Of a DNA stretch of 64,000 nt, positions 42,246-51,268 are shown piece after piece. Numbering within the stretch: the first letter of the stretch is position 1; every line of letters begins with the position of its first letter. The position numbers and the translations under genes are program-made. The DNA comes from Acidobacteriota bacterium (GTDB taxonomy: Bacteria > Acidobacteriota > UBA890 > WLXD01), in NCBI GenBank assembly GCA_963666055.2, contig CAXWPH010000012.1, forward strand, positions 96,001-160,000. The letters run 5' to 3'. The notes beneath the pieces are model-generated. The model was given only the letters and a program-made list of their open reading frames with translations. It searched no databases and was not told where the DNA came from.

Positions 42246-43625
42246 ATGCCAGACGCCGCATCCGGAGACCTGTTTGGCCCCCCTGACGGGCCGTCGATGA
42301 CTGCCGAGGTCGATCCGAGCTCGCCCCTCGCCGAGCGTATGCGTCCGCGCACTATCGAGGAGGTTCTCGGTCAGGAGCATCTGCTCGGTGAGGGCCGGCT
42401 TCTGAGCCAGCTAGTAGCGTCAGGGCATCCGACGTCGCTGATCCTGTGGGGCCCGGCGGGGGTGGGAAAGACGACCCTGGCACGCATCATCGGCGTCGCT
42501 ACCGGCAGCCGGCTGGTGGCGCTATCCGCAACCTCTTCGGGCGTCAAGCAGGTACGCGAGGCCGCCGACCAAGCATCTCGCCTCCGCCAGCATTCTGGCG
42601 GCCGCACGGTCATGTTCATCGACGAGATCCATCGTTTCCACAAGGGTCAGCAGGACGCTCTTCTGCCCTGGGTTGAGGACGGGTCGATCGTCCTTATCGG
42701 CGCCACGACGGAGAACCCGTCGTTCGAGGTTATTCCACCGTTGTTGTCGCGCTGTCGCGTCCTTCGCCTCGAGGCCCTGACTCCGGAGCACCTGGAGCTA
42801 CTGCTGCGGCGCGCCCTCGATACATCGCTGCCGCGCGGGTTGGCAGCCTCGGCGATCGAGTTTCCCGAACGGCTGCTGCGTCAGATCGCTGCTCTCGCGG
42901 ACGGCGACGCCCGTGCCGCGCTGTCAGCACTGGAGCTCGCCGTGAGCCTGGCTCGCCAACGGGGTGGGCGACCGCTTTCGGTGAGCGACGACGATGTCAA
43001 AGAGGCGCTCCAACGCCCCCACCTCCGCTACGATCGCGAGGAGCACTTCAACCAGATCTCGGCGCTACAGAAAAGCGTCCGCAACAGCAACCCCGATGCG
43101 GCGCTTTACTGGCTGGCGCGTATGCTCGAAGCGGGCGAGGCACCCTTGTACGTGGCGCGACGGCTGGTGCGCATGGCGAGCGAGGACATCGGCCTGGCCG
43201 ACCCCGGAGCGCTACCGCTCGCCGTTGCCGGCATGCAGACCATGCACGCTATCGGCATGCCCGAGGGTGCCCTGGCGCTGGCCGAGGTCGCCATCTACTT
43301 AGCCGCAGCTCCCAAGAGCAATAGCATCCTTACCGCCTACCGCGCTGCGGTCGATGAGACTCAGGCGAGCGGCAACCTCGCCGTACCGATGCAGCTACGC
43401 AACGCTCCGACCCGGCTGATGAAGGAGGAGGGCTACGGGGCGGGCTATGTCTATGCGCACGATCTCGATGACGGGGTCGCCGCGATGGACTGCCTCCCTG
43501 CGGAGATCAGTGATCGACGCTTCTACGTCGCCGGCGAGCGCGGTGCCGAGATCGGGATAGCCAAGCGACTTCGAGACTTCGCGAGAGGCCGCCGCCCACG
43601 CGGCGCACCCGATCTCGCCGACTAG
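42246..43625 (+). CDS. rarA: Replication-associated recombination protein A (RarA/MgsA)
   Basis: PLAERMRP, GPAGVGKTT, DEIHRF, GATTENPSF, SEDIGLADP. Confidence 0.95.
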   Translation: MPDAASGDLFGPPDGPSMTAEVDPSSPLAERMRPRTIEEVLGQEHLLGEGRLLSQLVASGHPTSLILWGPAGVGKTTLARIIGVATGSRLVALSATSSGVKQVREAADQASRLRQHSGGRTVMFIDEIHRFHKGQQDALLPWVEDGSIVLIGATTENPSFEVIPPLLSRCRVLRLEALTPEHLELLLRRALDTSLPRGLAASAIEFPERLLRQIAALADGDARAALSALELAVSLARQRGGRPLSVSDDDVKEALQRPHLRYDREEHFNQISALQKSVRNSNPDAALYWLARMLEAGEAPLYVARRLVRMASEDIGLADPGALPLAVAGMQTMHAIGMPEGALALAEVAIYLAAAPKSNSILTAYRAAVDETQASGNLAVPMQLRNAPTRLMKEEGYGAGYVYAHDLDDGVAAMDCLPAEISDRRFYVAGERGAEIGIAKRLRDFARGRRPRGAPDLAD

Positions 43626-46117
43626 CCCATACCTGCCGGACGTCGTCGAGCTGCCTTCTTTTTGCGTCGAGGTGGTCGTTTGATCGCCGCTTTTCGCGGC
43701 GCCGGCGGCGGAGACGTCAGCGCGTGCTCCAGTGCCTCCTCGACCCGATCGATGAACAGGAACTCCAAGCCCCGCCGCGCCTTCTCCGGAATCTCTTCGA
43801 GATCCTTCTCGTTCTTGCGCGGCATGACGACTCGCTTGAGCCCGGCTCGGTGGGCGGCCAGGACTTTGTTCTTGATACCACCCACTGGGAGCGCCAACCC
43901 CCGCAAGGTCAGCTCGCCGGTGAGGCCCAGATCGCTGGCGACTCGCCGCCCGGTGAATAACGAGGCCAATGCTACGAGCATCGCAATCCCGGCAGACGGA
44001 CCATCTTTGGGAGTGGCGCCGGCCGGCACATGGAGGTGCACGTCGTGGTTCTTGAACGCGCTGTCCGCGATACCCAGATCGGCGGCGTGACCGCGCAGGT
44101 ACGACATCGCGGCCTGCGCAGATTCCTTCATCACATCACCGAGCTGACCGGTCAGGCGCAGCTCGCCCTTGCCCTTCATTCGCGTCGCCTCGATGAACAG
44201 GATGTCGCCGCCCGTGACCGTCCAAGCGAGGCCCACCGCGACTCCCGAAACAGCGGTTCGCTCCGCCAGGTCGGAGAAGAACTTTATCGGGCCCAGGAAG
44301 CGATGGAGGTGCGCCACGGTCACATCGAGTGCCTCCGCCGGGCTGGCGTCGGGGTCATCGATTTGCTCCGCCACCAGCCTGGCCTGGGCACGGCAAATCG
44401 CCGCGATCTCGCGCTCTAGCCCGCGCAATCCGGCCTCCTCCGTATAGTCGCGGACGATCGCACCGATGGCGTCGCTGGCAAAGCTGAGTTGCTCGGGAGT
44501 GAGCCCGTGATCGTCGAGTTGTCGTGGCACCAAATAGCGTTGTGCGATCTCGACTTTCTCCTCGGCGGTGTAGCCGGGCAGCTCGAGAACTTCCATGCGA
44601 TCGCGCAAGACGGCAGGGATACCCTCGGGCGTGTTCCCCGTAGCGATAAACAGCACGCGCGAGAGATCGAAGGCGACTTCGAGATAGTGGTCCGAGAACG
44701 TGTCGTTTTGTTCCGGATCAAGCACCTCGAGCAAGGCGGCAGAAGGGTCGCCCCTGAAGTCTTGGCCGATCTTGTCGATCTCGTCCAGCATGAACACCGG
44801 GTTCATCGATCCGGCCCGCTTGATGCATTGGATTATGCGGCCGGGCAGGGCACCCACATACGTACGACGATGACCCCGAATCTCCGCCTCGTCGTGCACT
44901 CCGCCTAGCGATAGGCGCACGAATTTCCGTCCGAGGGCGGCGGCGATGGAGCGACCCAAGGACGTCTTCCCTACCCCTGGAGGTCCAATGAAGCACAGGA
45001 TCGGGCCCCGTTTGTCGGGCTTGAGCTTGCGCACCGCCAGGTATTCGATGATCCGCTTCTTCACCTTCTCCAGGTCGTAGTGGTCCTTGTCGAGAAGCTC
45101 TGCCGCGATCTTGAGGTCGAGGTTGTCCTCGGTATAGACACCCCATGGCATGTCGAGGATCCACTCGATGTACGTGCGTAGCACGTGATGCTCCGCTGCC
45201 GCGGGCGACATCCGGGAAAGCCGATCGAGCTCCTGGGTTGTTGTCTTACGAACGTCGTCGGGCATCGCGGCCTCGCTGATTCGCCGCCCAAGCGCCTCGA
45301 TCTCAGCGTTGTCCTCTTCCTCGCCGAGCTCGCGCTTGATGGCCCGCAAGCGTTCGCGCAAGTACATTTCACGCTGCCCGCGGTCGATCTCCCCCTGGAC
45401 TTCAGACTCGATCTTCTGTGACAGCTCGAGCACCTGAACCTGCTGCGTGAGCAGCCCCAGGAGCACGGTGAGCCGCTCGCTTGGCGACAACGTCTCGAGC
45501 ACCCGCTGCTTGTCTTCGACCGCGGTGGCAATATGCGCCGCGATGATGTCGACCATAGCGCCGGGCCGCGTCGCCGCACGTGCCAGCCCTTCCAGCTCGG
45601 CGGGCAGATCGGCCGACAGCTCGATGAGCTGTCGCAACAGGCGCAATGCACTGACTCGCTTGGCCTCGATCTCGACGTTGGCCACCGCAGCCTGCTCGGG
45701 GATGTCCTTCCAGGTGGCGTGAATGTAGGGGTCGGTGGAGGTGACCGCGTCGAGACGCAGCCTTTGAATGCCTTGAACAATCACGTTGAGATTACCGTTA
45801 GGCAGACTCAGAACCTTCACCAGTCGCGCCAGCGTGGCGATCTCGTGCAGATCGTCGGCCTTAGGCTCTTCGATCTCGGCGTTGCGCAACGCTACGACAG
45901 CCACCAGCCGATCGGCATCCATCGTCTCGACTACCAGCTGCTGGGAGGCCTTCCGCCCCACCAGCACCGGCATGACCACCCCGGGAAACAGCACAGACCC
46001 GCGCAGCGGTAACACCGGTAGCGTCGCTGGGAACTCGAGCTCCCCTCCTGCCTCGCGGCCAAGCTCCTGCTGAATCTCGGCGTCGAGGTGAGCGTGGAAC
46101 GGATCGGATTCAGGCAT
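43622..46117 (-). CDS. lon: ATP-dependent protease La (Lon)
   Basis: LON N-domain, GPPGVGKTS, RGHRRTYVGA, PKDGPSAG catalytic Ser. Confidence 0.97.
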   Translation of the reverse strand: MPESDPFHAHLDAEIQQELGREAGGELEFPATLPVLPLRGSVLFPGVVMPVLVGRKASQQLVVETMDADRLVAVVALRNAEIEEPKADDLHEIATLARLVKVLSLPNGNLNVIVQGIQRLRLDAVTSTDPYIHATWKDIPEQAAVANVEIEAKRVSALRLLRQLIELSADLPAELEGLARAATRPGAMVDIIAAHIATAVEDKQRVLETLSPSERLTVLLGLLTQQVQVLELSQKIESEVQGEIDRGQREMYLRERLRAIKRELGEEEDNAEIEALGRRISEAAMPDDVRKTTTQELDRLSRMSPAAAEHHVLRTYIEWILDMPWGVYTEDNLDLKIAAELLDKDHYDLEKVKKRIIEYLAVRKLKPDKRGPILCFIGPPGVGKTSLGRSIAAALGRKFVRLSLGGVHDEAEIRGHRRTYVGALPGRIIQCIKRAGSMNPVFMLDEIDKIGQDFRGDPSAALLEVLDPEQNDTFSDHYLEVAFDLSRVLFIATGNTPEGIPAVLRDRMEVLELPGYTAEEKVEIAQRYLVPRQLDDHGLTPEQLSFASDAIGAIVRDYTEEAGLRGLEREIAAICRAQARLVAEQIDDPDASPAEALDVTVAHLHRFLGPIKFFSDLAERTAVSGVAVGLAWTVTGGDILFIEATRMKGKGELRLTGQLGDVMKESAQAAMSYLRGHAADLGIADSAFKNHDVHLHVPAGATPKDGPSAGIAMLVALASLFTGRRVASDLGLTGELTLRGLALPVGGIKNKVLAAHRAGLKRVVMPRKNEKDLEEIPEKARRGLEFLFIDRVEEALEHALTSPPPAPRKAAIKRPPRRKKKAARRRPAGMG

Positions 46118-46225
46118 GTGTGTTCGGTTGCTCTTTGAGTAAGTTGCAGCGCATTCGCCTTCGCGTATGGTACCGCGCCCCCATCGGCCGCATGACGCAG
46201 CCCAACAGGCGCCACGCTTCGGGGC

Positions 46226-47152
46226 TCACTCGTTCTCCTGGCGTGGATCGTACGGATGCTGATCGCGTATCTGTCGCAAGATCTCCACCATTGGATCGGC
46301 GAGCTGTTTCGGCAGCTCGATCGCCACCTTCGCCATCAAGTCCCCTGCGCCGCCCGCCTTGCGTGCGGCGCCCTTGCCGCGCAGGCGGAACACCTGCCCG
46401 TTCGACGTGCCGGCTGGCAAGCTGATCGTCGTCGTCCCGGAGAGCGTCGGCACCTGCACGCGGCCACCGAGCGCCGCCTCATAAATGGTGATCGGCACGT
46501 TGGTGTGCAGATCGTCGCCGACGAGCCGGAACCGCGGGTGCGCCGCAATATCGACCACGACATACAGGTCGCCGCGGGCGCCGCCATTGAGTCCCGCGGA
46601 ACCCTTCCCTCGAACCCGAACCTTGCTCCCTTGCCGCACCCCGGCGGGGATTCGCACGCGGGTACGCTGCACGTCGCCGTTCTCGCCGCGGTAACTGATC
46701 AGGCGCTCAGCTCCGTTTACCGCCTCCTCGAGCCCGAGCTCGACACGAATACGTATGTCGCGCCCTCGCGACGGCGGCTGACGAACATGCGGGCGGCCAC
46801 CGAACCGGCTACCAGCGCCGAACCCACCGAGGAGCTCCTCGATGTTGAACCCACCGACCGAGAAGCCGCCGCCGCCGCCGAACAAGTTGCCGAACTGCTC
46901 GGAGAACGCCGATCCGTCGAAGTCGCGAGCGAACGCCTCAGGGCCCACCTGATCGTATTTCTTGCGCCGCTCGAGATCGCCGAGCACGTGGTAGGCCTCG
47001 GAGATCTCCTTGAACCTCTCCTCGGCCTTAGCATCGCCGGAATTGACATCCGGGTGCCACTTCCGGGCGAGCTTACGGTAGGCGCGCTTGATCTCGTCCG
47101 CCGCGGCTGCCTTCGCGACGCCGAGAACGGCATAGTAGTCGTGGCGCGGCAT
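46226..47152 (-). CDS. Class B J-domain protein (DnaJ/CbpA-like, no zinc finger)
   Basis: J domain with HPD, G/F-rich linker, C-terminal substrate-binding domain, no CxxCxGxG repeats. Confidence 0.92.
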   Translation of the reverse strand: MPRHDYYAVLGVAKAAAADEIKRAYRKLARKWHPDVNSGDAKAEERFKEISEAYHVLGDLERRKKYDQVGPEAFARDFDGSAFSEQFGNLFGGGGGFSVGGFNIEELLGGFGAGSRFGGRPHVRQPPSRGRDIRIRVELGLEEAVNGAERLISYRGENGDVQRTRVRIPAGVRQGSKVRVRGKGSAGLNGGARGDLYVVVDIAAHPRFRLVGDDLHTNVPITIYEAALGGRVQVPTLSGTTTISLPAGTSNGQVFRLRGKGAARKAGGAGDLMAKVAIELPKQLADPMVEILRQIRDQHPYDPRQENE

Positions 47153-47177
47153 CTAGCAGGCCGTGGTGGAAATGTGG
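47153..47177. repeat. Solo terminal repeat of the 9141 element abutting the J-protein start codon
   Basis: CTAGCAGGCCGTGGTGGAAATGTGG, 24/25 identical to the 34381-34405 copy. Confidence 0.75.
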
Positions 47178-47205
47178 GTCGTCAGGGCCGCCATTCTAGG
47201 GCTGT

Positions 47206-49824
47206 TCATGTCACCTCGGCCTCGGCAGTCACTCGAGTACCGCGGAACGTCAGCACGGAGCTAGTGGGATCCGTGTCCACGCGGATGTGGTCGCCGTCGA
47301 CGAACTCACCTGACAAGATCGCCCGCGCTAGAGGATTCTCGACCAGCTGGCGGATGAGGCGCTTGAGCGGGCGGGCGCCATAGACCGGGTCGTAGCCTTG
47401 CTCCGCCAGTAGCTGCTCAGCAGCCTCGCTGAACTCGATCTCGAGGTTACGATCGGCGACGCGTTCGGCCACTTGGCTTAGCTGGATGCGCACGATCTCT
47501 TGCAATTGTGCCACCGACAAGGACGAGAAGACGATCGTCTCGTCGATGCGGTTCACGAACTCCGGACGGAAGGTGCGGCGCACGGCGTCCAGCACTGCCG
47601 CTTCGATGCCCTCCGGCCCGATCTCGTCCAGCCGCTGCATATGCTCGCTGCCGAGGTTCGATGTCATGATCACGATGCTGTTGGAGAAGTCGACCGTGCG
47701 CCCCTTGCCGTCAGTAAGGCGCCCATCGTCGAGGATTTGCAGCAGGATGTTGAAGACATCGGGATGCGCCTTTTCGATCTCGTCGAGGAGGATGACCGAG
47801 TAAGGGCGCCGGCGCACAGCCTCGGTAAGGAAACCACCTTCTTCGTGGCCAACGTAACCGGGCGGTGCACCGATCATGCGCGCCACCGCGTGGCGCTCCA
47901 TATACTCCGTCATGTCGAGACGAATCATCGCCTCTTCGCTGTCGAACATGAACTCCGCCAGGGCCTTCGCCAACTCGGTTTTCCCTACGCCGGTCGGACC
48001 AAGGAACATGAACGAGCCGTAGGGACGGCCGGGCTCTTGCAGTCCGGCACGGGCCCTGCGGATGGCATCGGAGATGGCCCGCACCGCTGGCTCCTGGCCG
48101 ACGACGCGCTGGTGTAGCCGGGACTCCATTGCCAGCAGCTTGTCGATTTCCCCTTCGATGAGCTTGCTGACCGGAATGCCTGTCCACCGCGACACCACGG
48201 CGGCCACGTCTTCGGCGTCGACCTCCTCCTTGAGCATGGCGTTGCCGTCACCGTTAAGCTCCTCCAGGCGCTGGCGTGAGGTTTCGAGCTCTGCCTGGCG
48301 CTCACGGATAACGCCGTACCGTAGCTCCGCGGCGCGCGCCAGGTCACCGTCGCGCTCGGCGCGCTCGGCATCGATGCCCGCCTCCTCGATCTGGCGCTTG
48401 AGCTCCAGAATGCCACGCACGTGCCGAACTTCCTCCTCCCACCGCGCCTTCAGGCGCTCATGCTCTACGACCAGCGCGCTGAGGTCCTCCTCGAGCGTCT
48501 CCAGTCGATCCCTTGAGGCGCTGTCGTCTTCCTTGCGTAGCGCCTCGCGCTCGATCTCCATCTGGCGGCGGCGCCGTTCGATCTCGTCGAGAGGTGCCGG
48601 CTTGCTATCGATCTCGACTCGCAATCGCGCCCCCGCCTCATCCATCAGATCGATCGCTTTGTCAGGCAAGAACCGGTCGGTGATATAGCGGTGAGAGAGT
48701 GTCGCGGCTGCGATCAGCGCAGCGTCACGGATGCGTACCCCGTGGTGCACCTCGTAGCGTTCCTTGAGACCGCGCAGGATCGAGATGGTTTCCTCTACCG
48801 CCGGCTCTTGTACCCGCACCGGTTGGAAGCGGCGCTCGAGCGCTGGGTCTTTCTCGATGTACTTGCGAAACTCGTTCAGGGTGGTGGCACCGATCGCGTG
48901 CAGCTCGCCGCGCGCCAGCGCCGGCTTGAGCATGTTGGACGCGTCGACGGCGCCCTCGGCAGCACCGGCGCCGACAACAGTATGCAGCTCATCGATAAAC
49001 AGGATCACGTCGCCTGTCTCGGTGACCTCGCGCAAGAATGCCTTGAGCCGATCCTCGAACTCGCCCCGATATTTGGCCCCGGCCAGCATGGCGCCGAGGT
49101 CCAGGCTGATCACACGGCGGTTCTTCAGCGTCTCCGGCACATCACCGTTGATGACGCGCTGCGCCAACCCCTCGACAATGGCCGTCTTGCCCACACCCGG
49201 CTCACCGAGCAGCAGCGGGTTGTTCTTGGTCCGCCGCGACAGGACCTGTACAACCCTCCGGATCTCTTCGTCCCGGCCGATCACCGGGTCCAGCTTGCCG
49301 CGGCGGGCACGCTCGGTAAGGTCAACCCCGTACTGGTCGATGGCGTTGTACTTGTCCTCCGGGTTGGGATCGGTGACCCGCATGCCGCCACGCACCTTCT
49401 GCAACGCGGCGAAGAGGTCGTCGCGGCCTACGCGATGGCTGACGAGCAGCTCGGCTGCTCTGGCGCCCGATCCCAGCAACCCCAGCAGCAAGTGCTCGGT
49501 GGAGACGAATCGATCCTCCAGCTGATCGGCCTCGGTATGAGCCGTCTCGAAGGCCGACTTGGCGCTCGCCTCCAGATAGGGCTCGAGGTTTCCACCACTC
49601 ACCTTCGGACGTTGCTCGGCCTCCGCACGGAGGGCCTGGAGCAGGGCATCCGGATCGCTTCCGAGCCGCTGGAGAACGGTGCGCACGACGCCGTCGGCCG
49701 GCTCGAGCAACGCCATCAACAAGTGGACGCCCGCGAGGCCTTGGTGTCTAAGCGATTGCGCTAACGCCTGGGCGCGCTGGACCGCCTCCTGCGCCTTCAC
49801 GGTGAATCTGTCGAAGCGGATCAT
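47206..49824 (-). CDS. clpB: Disaggregase ClpB
   Basis: Two AAA+ modules ([16 protein letters not shown]) and a long coiled-coil middle domain. Confidence 0.96.
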
Positions 49825-50474
49825 CTGGCTGTCCCTCCCCATCCGGGCGAATGTCGTCCTTCGAGTGTCAATGAGAATGGGTGCTGGTTCAGATCACGAA
49901 TCACCGACGCCACGCGCCCCACCACCTCTACTTCGGCGCTGGCGTCGAATCGCCCCGCCAACGGCACCGCCGTTCGGTCATCCGCGGCCATCTTCATCAA
50001 CAGAACTCTGCGTGACTGCAGGCCGAGCAACAGATCTCCGCGGCGCGCCTCGGCATCGCAATCGACTACCAGGAGGTCACCCTGCAGGATCCCGTGGGCG
50101 CCCAGCGAGGTTGAGCGCACCTGCACAGCGATCGCGTTGGGCCCCACCAGCCTGCCATCGACGTATACCTCACGCGTCCGCGCCTTCGAGAGGCCGCGCG
50201 CCGAGGGCACCCCGGCAACCACCGGCACGCCAATCGACCGGCGTCCAGCCCGAGGGCGTGCCATGCGAGCCAACTCGATGCCACGTGAGGCGCCTGGACG
50301 GCGGCGAATAAAACCCTTGCGCTCGATCGCTTTGAGGTGATCGGAGATCCCCGCGGCAGAGCTGAGGCCGAACGCGTCGGCGATCTCCATAAGGGTTGGC
50401 GGGATGCCGTCGAGGCTGACCTGTCCGACGATAAAGTCGTAGATCGCTCTCTGGCGGCGGGTCAGGGTCGTCAT
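49821..50474 (-). CDS. LexA-like transcriptional repressor with a degenerate S24 autopeptidase domain
   Basis: LTRRQ...PPTLMEIA...HLKAIERKG...SRGI LexA DNA-binding domain; C-domain keeps GI..GDLLVV and VVGRV but lacks VAAG and TVK. Confidence 0.88.
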
Positions 50475-50544: not shown

Positions 50545-50573
50545 AGTATACCAAATAAATTTATGGTACACAA
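50545..50573 (-). promoter_or_regulatory. sigma70 promoter (TTGTGT-17-TATACT) overlaid by inverted repeat GTATACCA-N10-TGGTACAC
   Basis: -35 at 50568-50573 and -10 at 50545-50550 on the minus strand; AT-rich island about 70 bp upstream of the lexA-like ATG. Confidence 0.7.
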
Positions 50574-50611: not shown

Positions 50612-51268
50612 CTATGCGGAGTCCACCTGATCCCGCGGCCAAGGACACAGATCGGCCAGTGCACAGCCCGCACACGCCGGCGTGCGCGCCTTACATGTGT
50701 AGCGGCCATGCCAGACATAGAGACGCGAGATGTCCGCCCAGCGAACCTCCGGATATAGATCGCCGAGGCAGCGCTCGATCTTCACCGGATCCGCGTCGGT
50801 GGTCAGGCCGAGGCGCTGGCTGACGCGCCGACAGTGGGTGTCAACCGCTATGCCCGGCAAGCCGAAGGCTCCGGCGCGGACAACGTTTGCGGTCTTGCGC
50901 CCCACTCCAGGCAACGCGGTCAGCTCGTCCATGCCGCGCGGTACCTCACCGCCGTGGAGCTCAACCAGCATGGCGCAGCAACCTTGCACGCTCTTGGCTT
51001 TTTGGCGGAAGAAGCCCGTGCTGCGCAGCTCCTCCTCGAGCTTGTCACGGGGCGCCGCCGCCAACGCCTTGGCGTCGGGGTACTTGCGAAACAGCTCCGG
51101 CGTTACCTGGTTGACCCGTTTGTCAGTCGATTGTGCCGACAGGATCGTGGCGATGAGCAGCTGTAGCGGCCCATCAAAATCAAGCTCGATCCGGGCCTCT
51201 GGATAACGATGCGCGAGTCGATCGAGGATCTCCGCAGCGCGCACTTCAGTTTCTCGCTGCCCCATCAT
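50612..51268 (-). CDS. nth: Endonuclease III
   Basis: LSAQSTD, LPGVGRKTAN HhH, VDTH, C-terminal CKARTPACAGCALADLC Fe-S motif. Confidence 0.95.
   Translation of the reverse strand: MMGQRETEVRAAEILDRLAHRYPEARIELDFDGPLQLLIATILSAQSTDKRVNQVTPELFRKYPDAKALAAAPRDKLEEELRSTGFFRQKAKSVQGCCAMLVELHGGEVPRGMDELTALPGVGRKTANVVRAGAFGLPGIAVDTHCRRVSQRLGLTTDADPVKIERCLGDLYPEVRWADISRLYVWHGRYTCKARTPACAGCALADLCPWPRDQVDSA

Follow-up and report, generated by a model that had tools for sequence, protein, structure and literature searches.

HrcA and CtsR are encoded by the first gene of their own chaperone or Clp operon. The general logic by which HrcA, HspR and CtsR repress chaperone operons has been described (PMC7053576), and clpB and lon are targets of HspR (PMC2687793). 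Among the S24-family repressors, HdiR from Lactococcus and Streptococcus responds to heat shock, shows a RecA-linked cleavage and belongs to the phage-repressor group (PMC8565304), and the LexA-related protein Sll1626 from Synechocystis PCC 6803, which possesses neither the Ala-Gly cleavage site nor the nucleophilic Ser, acts on crhR and is linked to redox control (PMC1524924).

Here we describe a lexA-like gene at the head of clpB, a J-protein gene and lon in the genome of an Acidobacteriota bacterium (the source genome, G000). It is located in a stretch of 64,000 nucleotides (contig CAXWPH010000012.1, positions 96,001 to 160,000), which is called the window and to which the coordinates refer unless a contig handle is given. 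An earlier note on this DNA had proposed a non-cleavable LexA paralogue as candidate heat-shock regulator of these genes. From the analysis presented here we lean towards the view that the encoded protein is an autorepressor of the lexA-like-clpB-J-lon unit which is inactivated by heat or misfolded proteins rather than by RecA.

Self-cleavage residues of the LexA-like protein

The lexA-like gene (49821..50474, minus strand) encodes 217 amino acids with a winged-helix domain (residues 1-68), an S24-like C domain and a variable tail. In a Pfam search the LexA DNA-binding domain PF01726 reached 78.6 bits at a cut-off of 23.7, in line with the earlier statement that this domain is retained. PF00717 (18.3 bits, cut-off 23.3) and TIGR00498 (96.7 bits, cut-off 110.95) stayed under their cut-offs, and family domains of HrcA, HspR or CtsR were not found in the protein with Pfam and NCBIfam. 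The AlphaFold model (predicted local distance difference test, pLDDT, of 86) has LexA (3JSO) as its top structural match with a Z score of 14.5 and is LexA-like in both domains; the modelled C domain matched LexA C domains with Z scores of 10.5-11.1 and a root mean square deviation of about 3 Å over about 108 residues, and as query in the ESM Atlas it retrieved Peptidase_S24 clusters only (0.92).

To fix the register, the protein was aligned by profile with E. coli LexA chains and, using hhalign, with the canonical LexA of the source genome. Ala84-Gly85 of E. coli LexA corresponds to Ser91-Ala92, Ser119 to Ser123, Glu152 to Arg156 and Lys156 to Met160, and thus the replacement of Ala-Gly by Ser-Ala, of Lys by Met and of Glu by Arg, previously aligned by eye, was confirmed by both methods. 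For the wider comparison we used 26 genomes of the same order and 375 other Acidobacteriota. In the catalytic columns of the 20 orthologues from the order Ala-Gly, Lys and Glu152 are each present in none and Ser is present in five, whereas A, G, S and K are all present in each of the 66 canonical LexAs aligned with them. Database homologues give a similar picture (Ala-Gly 0/50, Lys 0/50, Ser 12/50), so the Ser nucleophile, which had been reported as retained, is kept in the source copy and not across the clade. The earlier note had also cautioned that an Ala-Gly four residues earlier and a Lys one residue later might change the register. Ala87-Gly88 occurs in 3/50 homologues and aligns with a canonical Gly-Arg strand position, and Lys161 occurs in 1/50; since neither is conserved and both lie off the catalytic register, a register shift does not rescue cleavage and this caveat falls away. 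The sequence comparison points to a LexA derivative that is likely to be without self-cleavage capacity.

In the pocket for RecA-F203, for which positions on LexA are named in bioRxiv 10.1101/2023.10.30.564768, F111 is retained in 2/20 and L113 in 0/20 orthologues, in contrast to F/Y and L in 66/66 canonical LexAs, and we are confident that the protein is insensitive to RecA. The ratio of nonsynonymous to synonymous substitution rates (dN/dS) is 0.03-0.22 for the N domain and 0.09-0.29 for the C domain (11 non-independent pairs), and these low values in both domains show that the dead protease fold is kept by selection and rule out a pseudogene. Neither the length nor the sequence of the C-terminal tail is conserved (dN/dS 0.11-1.74), and many orthologues have a disordered, often basic tail.

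Promoter and candidate palindromic operator

A sigma70-type promoter lies in front of the gene on the minus strand, with the -35 hexamer TTGTGT at 50568..50573 and the -10 hexamer TATACT at 50545..50550, both located by a script searching for TTGnnn-17-TAnnnT. Its spacer is filled by a 20-bp palindrome, the operator candidate TACCATAAATTTATTTGGTA (50549..50568). The range given by the earlier note contained the genes correctly and ended just short of this region (50573-50545), so that promoter and operator were missed. The palindrome, with the clade consensus TACCGTAAATATTTACGGTA, was found in all 20 upstream regions, and the promoter around it in 18 of them by script and in a 19th by eye; a generic promoter scanner, which needs 4/6 matches, did not find it. 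In 7/20 regions a second copy of the palindrome with more than 5 bits is located exactly 20 bp further upstream. Using a matrix trained without the window's own site, this site scored 28.2 bits and the runner-up in the 5.7-Mb genome 18.9 bits, and among the relatives 13 of the 14 pattern matches inside the order fall at the promoter of the lexA-like gene.

All 20 orthologues share the recognition helix S.[NTAS]G[VI].DHL. Among the canonical LexAs a box of at least 18 bits was detected upstream of 7/8 with this helix pattern and of 3/58 without it; these 66 LexAs come from other phyla, and six of the seven positives are close kin. Because helix and box covary in canonical LexAs, we assign the palindrome to the lexA-like protein, which very probably binds it and represses the promoter, as judged from sequence alone. 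The canonical LexAs L123, L134, L137, L145, L153, L156 and L092 from Binatia-like and related groups carry CTG(A/T)AAATATTT(T/A)CAG upstream, a candidate LexA box for these groups.

In a matrix scan of the genome the lexA-like gene's own promoter was the sole strong site, and no strong box was found at recA, dnaK, groE or hsp20; a global heat-shock regulon is thereby ruled out. A weak pair of sites near an SRPBCC-like gene (C15:353214 and 353259 in G000) is conserved and perhaps identical with the pattern match in G002; it lies within the background and was not counted. The canonical LexA linked to imuA (L001) served as a control. Its candidate box AGACAAATGTCT, which differs from the palindrome, turned up precisely at the promoter of this LexA gene and at the distal end of the mutagenesis cassette (C5:147105 and 154408); this box was not found at recA in the source genome. 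Searches of the 20 lexA-like/clpB promoters with consensus motifs found neither the controlling inverted repeat of chaperone expression (CIRCE; at least 7 mismatches) nor the HspR-associated inverted repeat (HAIR; at least 5 mismatches).

Linkage to clpB and lon, origin and further repressors

The stop of the lexA-like gene overlaps the start of clpB in an ATGA (49821-49824), and clpB (47206..49824), the J gene (46226..47152) and lon (43622..46117) follow on the minus strand with gaps of -4, 53 and 108 nt, exactly in the order and at the coordinates reported before. The disaggregase ClpB scores 1308.7 bits with TIGR03346, above the cut-off, and has intact Walker motifs. The J protein combines DnaJ and DnaJ_C domains (PF00226 and PF01556) with an HPD motif and has no zinc-finger motif; it is a CbpA-like class II J-domain protein and not a full DnaJ. 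Lon is the second, accessory copy (TIGR00763, 929 bits, above the cut-off, catalytic motifs intact) of two in the source genome, the housekeeping-type lon being located elsewhere.

The full lexA-like gene is present in 20/26 genomes of the order, and in two more (G001 and G021) its 3' end, located at the edge of a contig, immediately precedes clpB, so that the gene or its 3' end adjoins clpB upstream in 22/22 clpB-bearing genomes, a conserved synteny as the earlier note had wished to see checked. The gap to clpB is -4 in 9/20 and at most 15 nt in 17/20, lon comes next in 16/17 relatives' loci with enough DNA, and of 20 fetched loci 19 showed the synteny, the remaining one representing an unrelated partial match. 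In the four genomes without clpB (55-88% complete, one genus) the lexA-like gene was not found and each has one lon. The lexA-like gene, clpB and the second lon are therefore tightly linked and lost together. Among the 375 other Acidobacteriota, with few candidates scored per genome, the clade profile matched only two, both canonical LexAs with no clpB nearby, and in 14 clpB neighbourhoods taken from other families lexA was never located upstream. One of these, from G033 (L167, C92:121000-141000), shows hspR-cbpA-clpB, and about 12 kb downstream of it a canonical lexA and nth are located.

Upstream of the window's lexA-like gene nth (endonuclease III; 50612..51268, minus strand) is a conserved neighbour, which is set apart by insertions in some genomes; it sits upstream of the promoter and is therefore not predicted to be under the palindromic operator. 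At the other end lon and the convergent rarA share 4 nt at their stops (43622-43625), which leaves no space for an intergenic terminator. A short repeat element with the ends CTAGCAGGCCGTGGTG is abundant in the source genome, where it occurs 267 times (ends counted on both strands), and one of its ends lies in the 53-nt spacer between clpB and the J gene (47153..47205). In G007 the complete element, an inverted-repeat copy of about 300 nt (303 nt), lies between the repressor gene and clpB.

In the phylogenetic tree (4 of 125 rows left out) the lexA-like homologues form a compact, monophyletic clade with support of 1.0 on a long branch, and close named relatives are labelled Acidobacteriota. 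A duplicate of the order's native lexA was disfavoured in the approximately unbiased (AU) test (p=0.019; 54 taxa, quick trees, 2000 replicates). A Binatia-like donor, with the same recognition helix and box, was preferred, and none of the Binatia-like, L092 and Ignavibacteria-like sisters was rejected. The gene was probably acquired laterally rather than by duplication of the native copy. An ancestor of the order would have gained a canonical LexA together with its box and placed it before clpB-cbpA-lon, and the catalytic residues would have decayed afterwards. Among the database proteins, P0080, P0081, P0082, P0084, P0095 and P0101 carry two LexA DNA-binding domains in tandem and lack a peptidase domain, and P0058, P0061 and P0072, some labelled Planctomycetia, form a further LexA-like group without cleavage residues.

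The source genome encodes three LexAs, a cleavable copy heading the imuA-type mutagenesis cassette, a native copy without the Lys and the clpB-linked copy, which excludes the latter as sole or replacement LexA; the separate canonical lexA that had been asked for is thus the cassette copy, which looks cleavable. The other two LexAs have helices and upstream motifs different from those of the clpB-linked protein. By its residues the native lexA of family f1 is a second, independent dead LexA, leaving the cassette copy as the only cleavable-looking one in the source genome. In this family (L002 at C12:77254-77841 in G000, L243-L250 and L034) Ala-Gly or Ser is often lost too, and in f2 the native lexA is mostly intact; four g9 copies show Ala-Ala and Lys-to-Arg.

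The classical regulators are also present. In the source genome a perfect CIRCE accompanies hrcA-grpE-dnaJ, each of two groE operons also has a CIRCE, and hsp20 carries a HAIR-like site. An HspR-like gene, scoring 99.1 bits at a cut-off of 105, stands behind dnaK-dnaJ. CtsR was not found in this genome, which completes the check for hrcA, hspR and ctsR suggested earlier. The dnaK-dnaJ-hspR-like genes converge on hrcA-grpE-dnaJ (C11:217277-225594), and the dnaK promoter has no CIRCE; the motif CTAACTAA is repeated there and might be a diverged site for HspR. The two groES-groEL operons (C12:318550-320187 and C15:549266-550903) are near-identical with the same CIRCE and may be a recent duplication or an assembly artefact. 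A replacement of the HspR or HrcA genes by the lexA-like protein is ruled out as both are present, and since the HspR-like gene occurs in 24/26 genomes of the order, at most clpB and lon were handed over as targets. With HrcA, the HspR-like gene and a cleavable LexA coexisting, the lexA-like protein represents a third, single-operon module and not a global regulator. From the promoters of clpB without CIRCE or HAIR in 20 genomes and of hsp20 without the box, the proteostasis genes appear to be split among three repressors. Of the earlier proposal, the non-cleavable LexA derivative, the separate canonical lexA and the conserved synteny have stood; together with the candidate operator they fit a LexA co-opted as regulator of this operon, and any global role or replacement of the classical repressors has to be dropped.

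Proposed release of repression and comparison with known systems

According to our model a dimer of the lexA-like protein on the palindrome in the promoter spacer would block RNA polymerase, and the lexA-like, clpB, J and lon genes would be repressed as one predicted transcript. As the self-cleavage residues are lost, release would not occur by self-cleavage; in analogy to HrcA and HspR the dead C domain might serve as a marginally stable dimerisation module which unfolds or is chaperone-starved under stress. ClpB and the J protein of the operon, together with DnaK, would then restore the repressor and close a negative loop, and Lon may clear the inactivated repressor and is unlikely to be the switch. 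One might go further and see here a new class of heat-shock repressor beside HrcA, HspR, CtsR and RheA, a captured SOS repressor with its operator which, without protease activity, senses protein damage and took clpB and lon from HspR, giving three parallel circuits (HrcA for groE and grpE-dnaJ, HspR for dnaK and hsp20, the dead LexA for clpB-cbpA-lon); for this we see an even chance.

Several observations weigh against an autorepressor inactivated by protein damage. We consider induction of the operon by proteotoxic stress to be fairly probable, heat induction being read from the operon's content. Four RNA runs compared at 80% likeness bear on expression in neither direction, as their matches were confined to short, conserved fragments of foreign origin. 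Among the orthologues no conserved cleft residue or degron was found as a sensing feature. The predicted regulon would be a single operon, as the promoters of dnaK, groE and hsp20 do not have the box; the best box score upstream of hsp20 was 6.2 bits (19/21 loci with enough DNA), and the six genome sites above 13 bits equal the background of 1-8 sites for 20 column-shuffled matrices. The Lys of the native lexA is lost (to Gly or Ala) in 10/10 family f1 genomes having this gene, and decay of cleavability may therefore be a trend of the lineage. Finally, the J gene in G014 is not followed by lon, the 303-nt element splits the lexA-like gene from clpB in G007, and the DNA-repair gene nth precedes the lexA-like gene in 18/19 relatives.

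The repressor might also be controlled in another way. Switching by regulated proteolysis, with the intact repressor being degraded by the operon's Lon (or ClpXP) upon stimulation by unfolded proteins, would fit the second lon, which belongs to the module and is lost together with it, the disordered, often basic tails of many orthologues and the Lon of Caulobacter, which is activated by unfolded substrates. Full derepression in the case of HdiR also needs Clp (PMC8565304). However, the tails are unconserved with a wide range of dN/dS, G014 retains repressor and clpB without a downstream lon, and turnover by the operon's own Lon would form a positive loop in which titration of Lon by damaged proteins stabilises the repressor; simple turnover, which the earlier note had entertained, would thus have the wrong feedback sign and finds no support in the sequence, and we regard such a switch as unlikely. 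A non-inducible autorepressor that merely fixes the level of clpB-cbpA-lon, or one answering to a metabolite, redox state or growth phase, would agree with the absence of an identified sensing feature, the single-operon regulon, the presence of HspR and HrcA in these genomes and the redox link of the non-cleavable Synechocystis LexA (PMC1524924). It is likewise unlikely, since in other systems clpB and lon are repressor-controlled and induced by heat (PMC2687793), a promoter without CIRCE or HAIR would lose heat control altogether, and a promoter close to consensus that one or two operators block is laid out like an inducible switch.

A link to DNA damage could have been kept if activated RecA or an antirepressor sequestered the uncleaved protein and the operon were induced with SOS. 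The LexA fold in both domains, RecA pocket positions that are still hydrophobic, the neighbouring nth and the resemblance of the box to classical SOS boxes speak for it, but F111 and L113, which do not vary among canonical LexAs, have given way to other residues, the box was not found at recA or other repair genes, and the promoter lies between nth and the lexA-like gene, with insertions separating nth in some genomes, so that we consider this very unlikely. Least probable of all is that the palindrome belongs to another regulator and that the lexA-like protein works at other sites or is simply carried along: helix and box correspond in canonical LexAs, the box is almost confined to the lexA-like gene, helix and upstream motif differ in the other two LexAs, and dN/dS excludes a pseudogene.

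If the lexA-like protein is indeed a repressor that senses protein damage, it would add a LexA-fold repressor in front of clpB-cbpA-lon to the handful of families to which heat-shock repression is attributed, and it would offer a clear example from nature of a switch for DNA damage that has been turned over to proteostasis. With protein, operator and promoter specified, the way in which a non-cleavable LexA is switched off can be put to the test in E. coli by means of a 30-bp reporter, for an order known here from assembled genomes alone. Neither the annotation 'lexA' nor an SOS-like box implies SOS control, as two of the three LexA copies in the family are without the catalytic Lys.

In our literature search, which covered few subscription journals, a LexA heading a clpB operon was not found. 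With HspR, a MerR-type repressor of dnaK, clpB and lon, the lexA-like protein has the kind of predicted target in common, but fold and operator are unrelated and no HAIR is present at the lexA-like promoter. The layout of a repressor gene in a chaperone or protease operon with the operator over the promoter is shared with HrcA and CtsR, whereas there is no sequence relation, and HrcA with CIRCE is located separately in the genome. HdiR controls mutagenesis genes and not chaperones (PMC8565304), in contrast to the lexA-like protein at the head of a chaperone operon.

The relationship to canonical LexA of the E. coli type is closer. Both share the two-domain fold, a similar recognition helix and, as predicted for the lexA-like gene, a 20-bp palindromic operator over the own promoter, often with two in tandem. 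The lexA-like protein differs in the absence of Ala-Gly and the Lys base, the mostly lost Ser and scores below the TIGR00498 and PF00717 cut-offs, and it heads a chaperone/protease operon with no box at recA or repair genes; on sequence grounds it is a descendant of the canonical SOS LexA that stands outside this family in its catalytic and regulon features. Common to it and Sll1626 are the loss of self-cleavage residues and non-SOS genes as targets, which are predicted ones in our case, but in the lexA-like protein it is Ala-Gly and Lys that are lost, and this protein occurs beside a cleavable LexA and heads a compact proteostasis operon, and we assume an independent origin. A non-cleavable, repurposed LexA is thus already known from Synechocystis (PMC1524924), and newly found here is the palindrome, which all 20 upstream regions share and which fills the spacer between the sigma70-type promoter hexamers.

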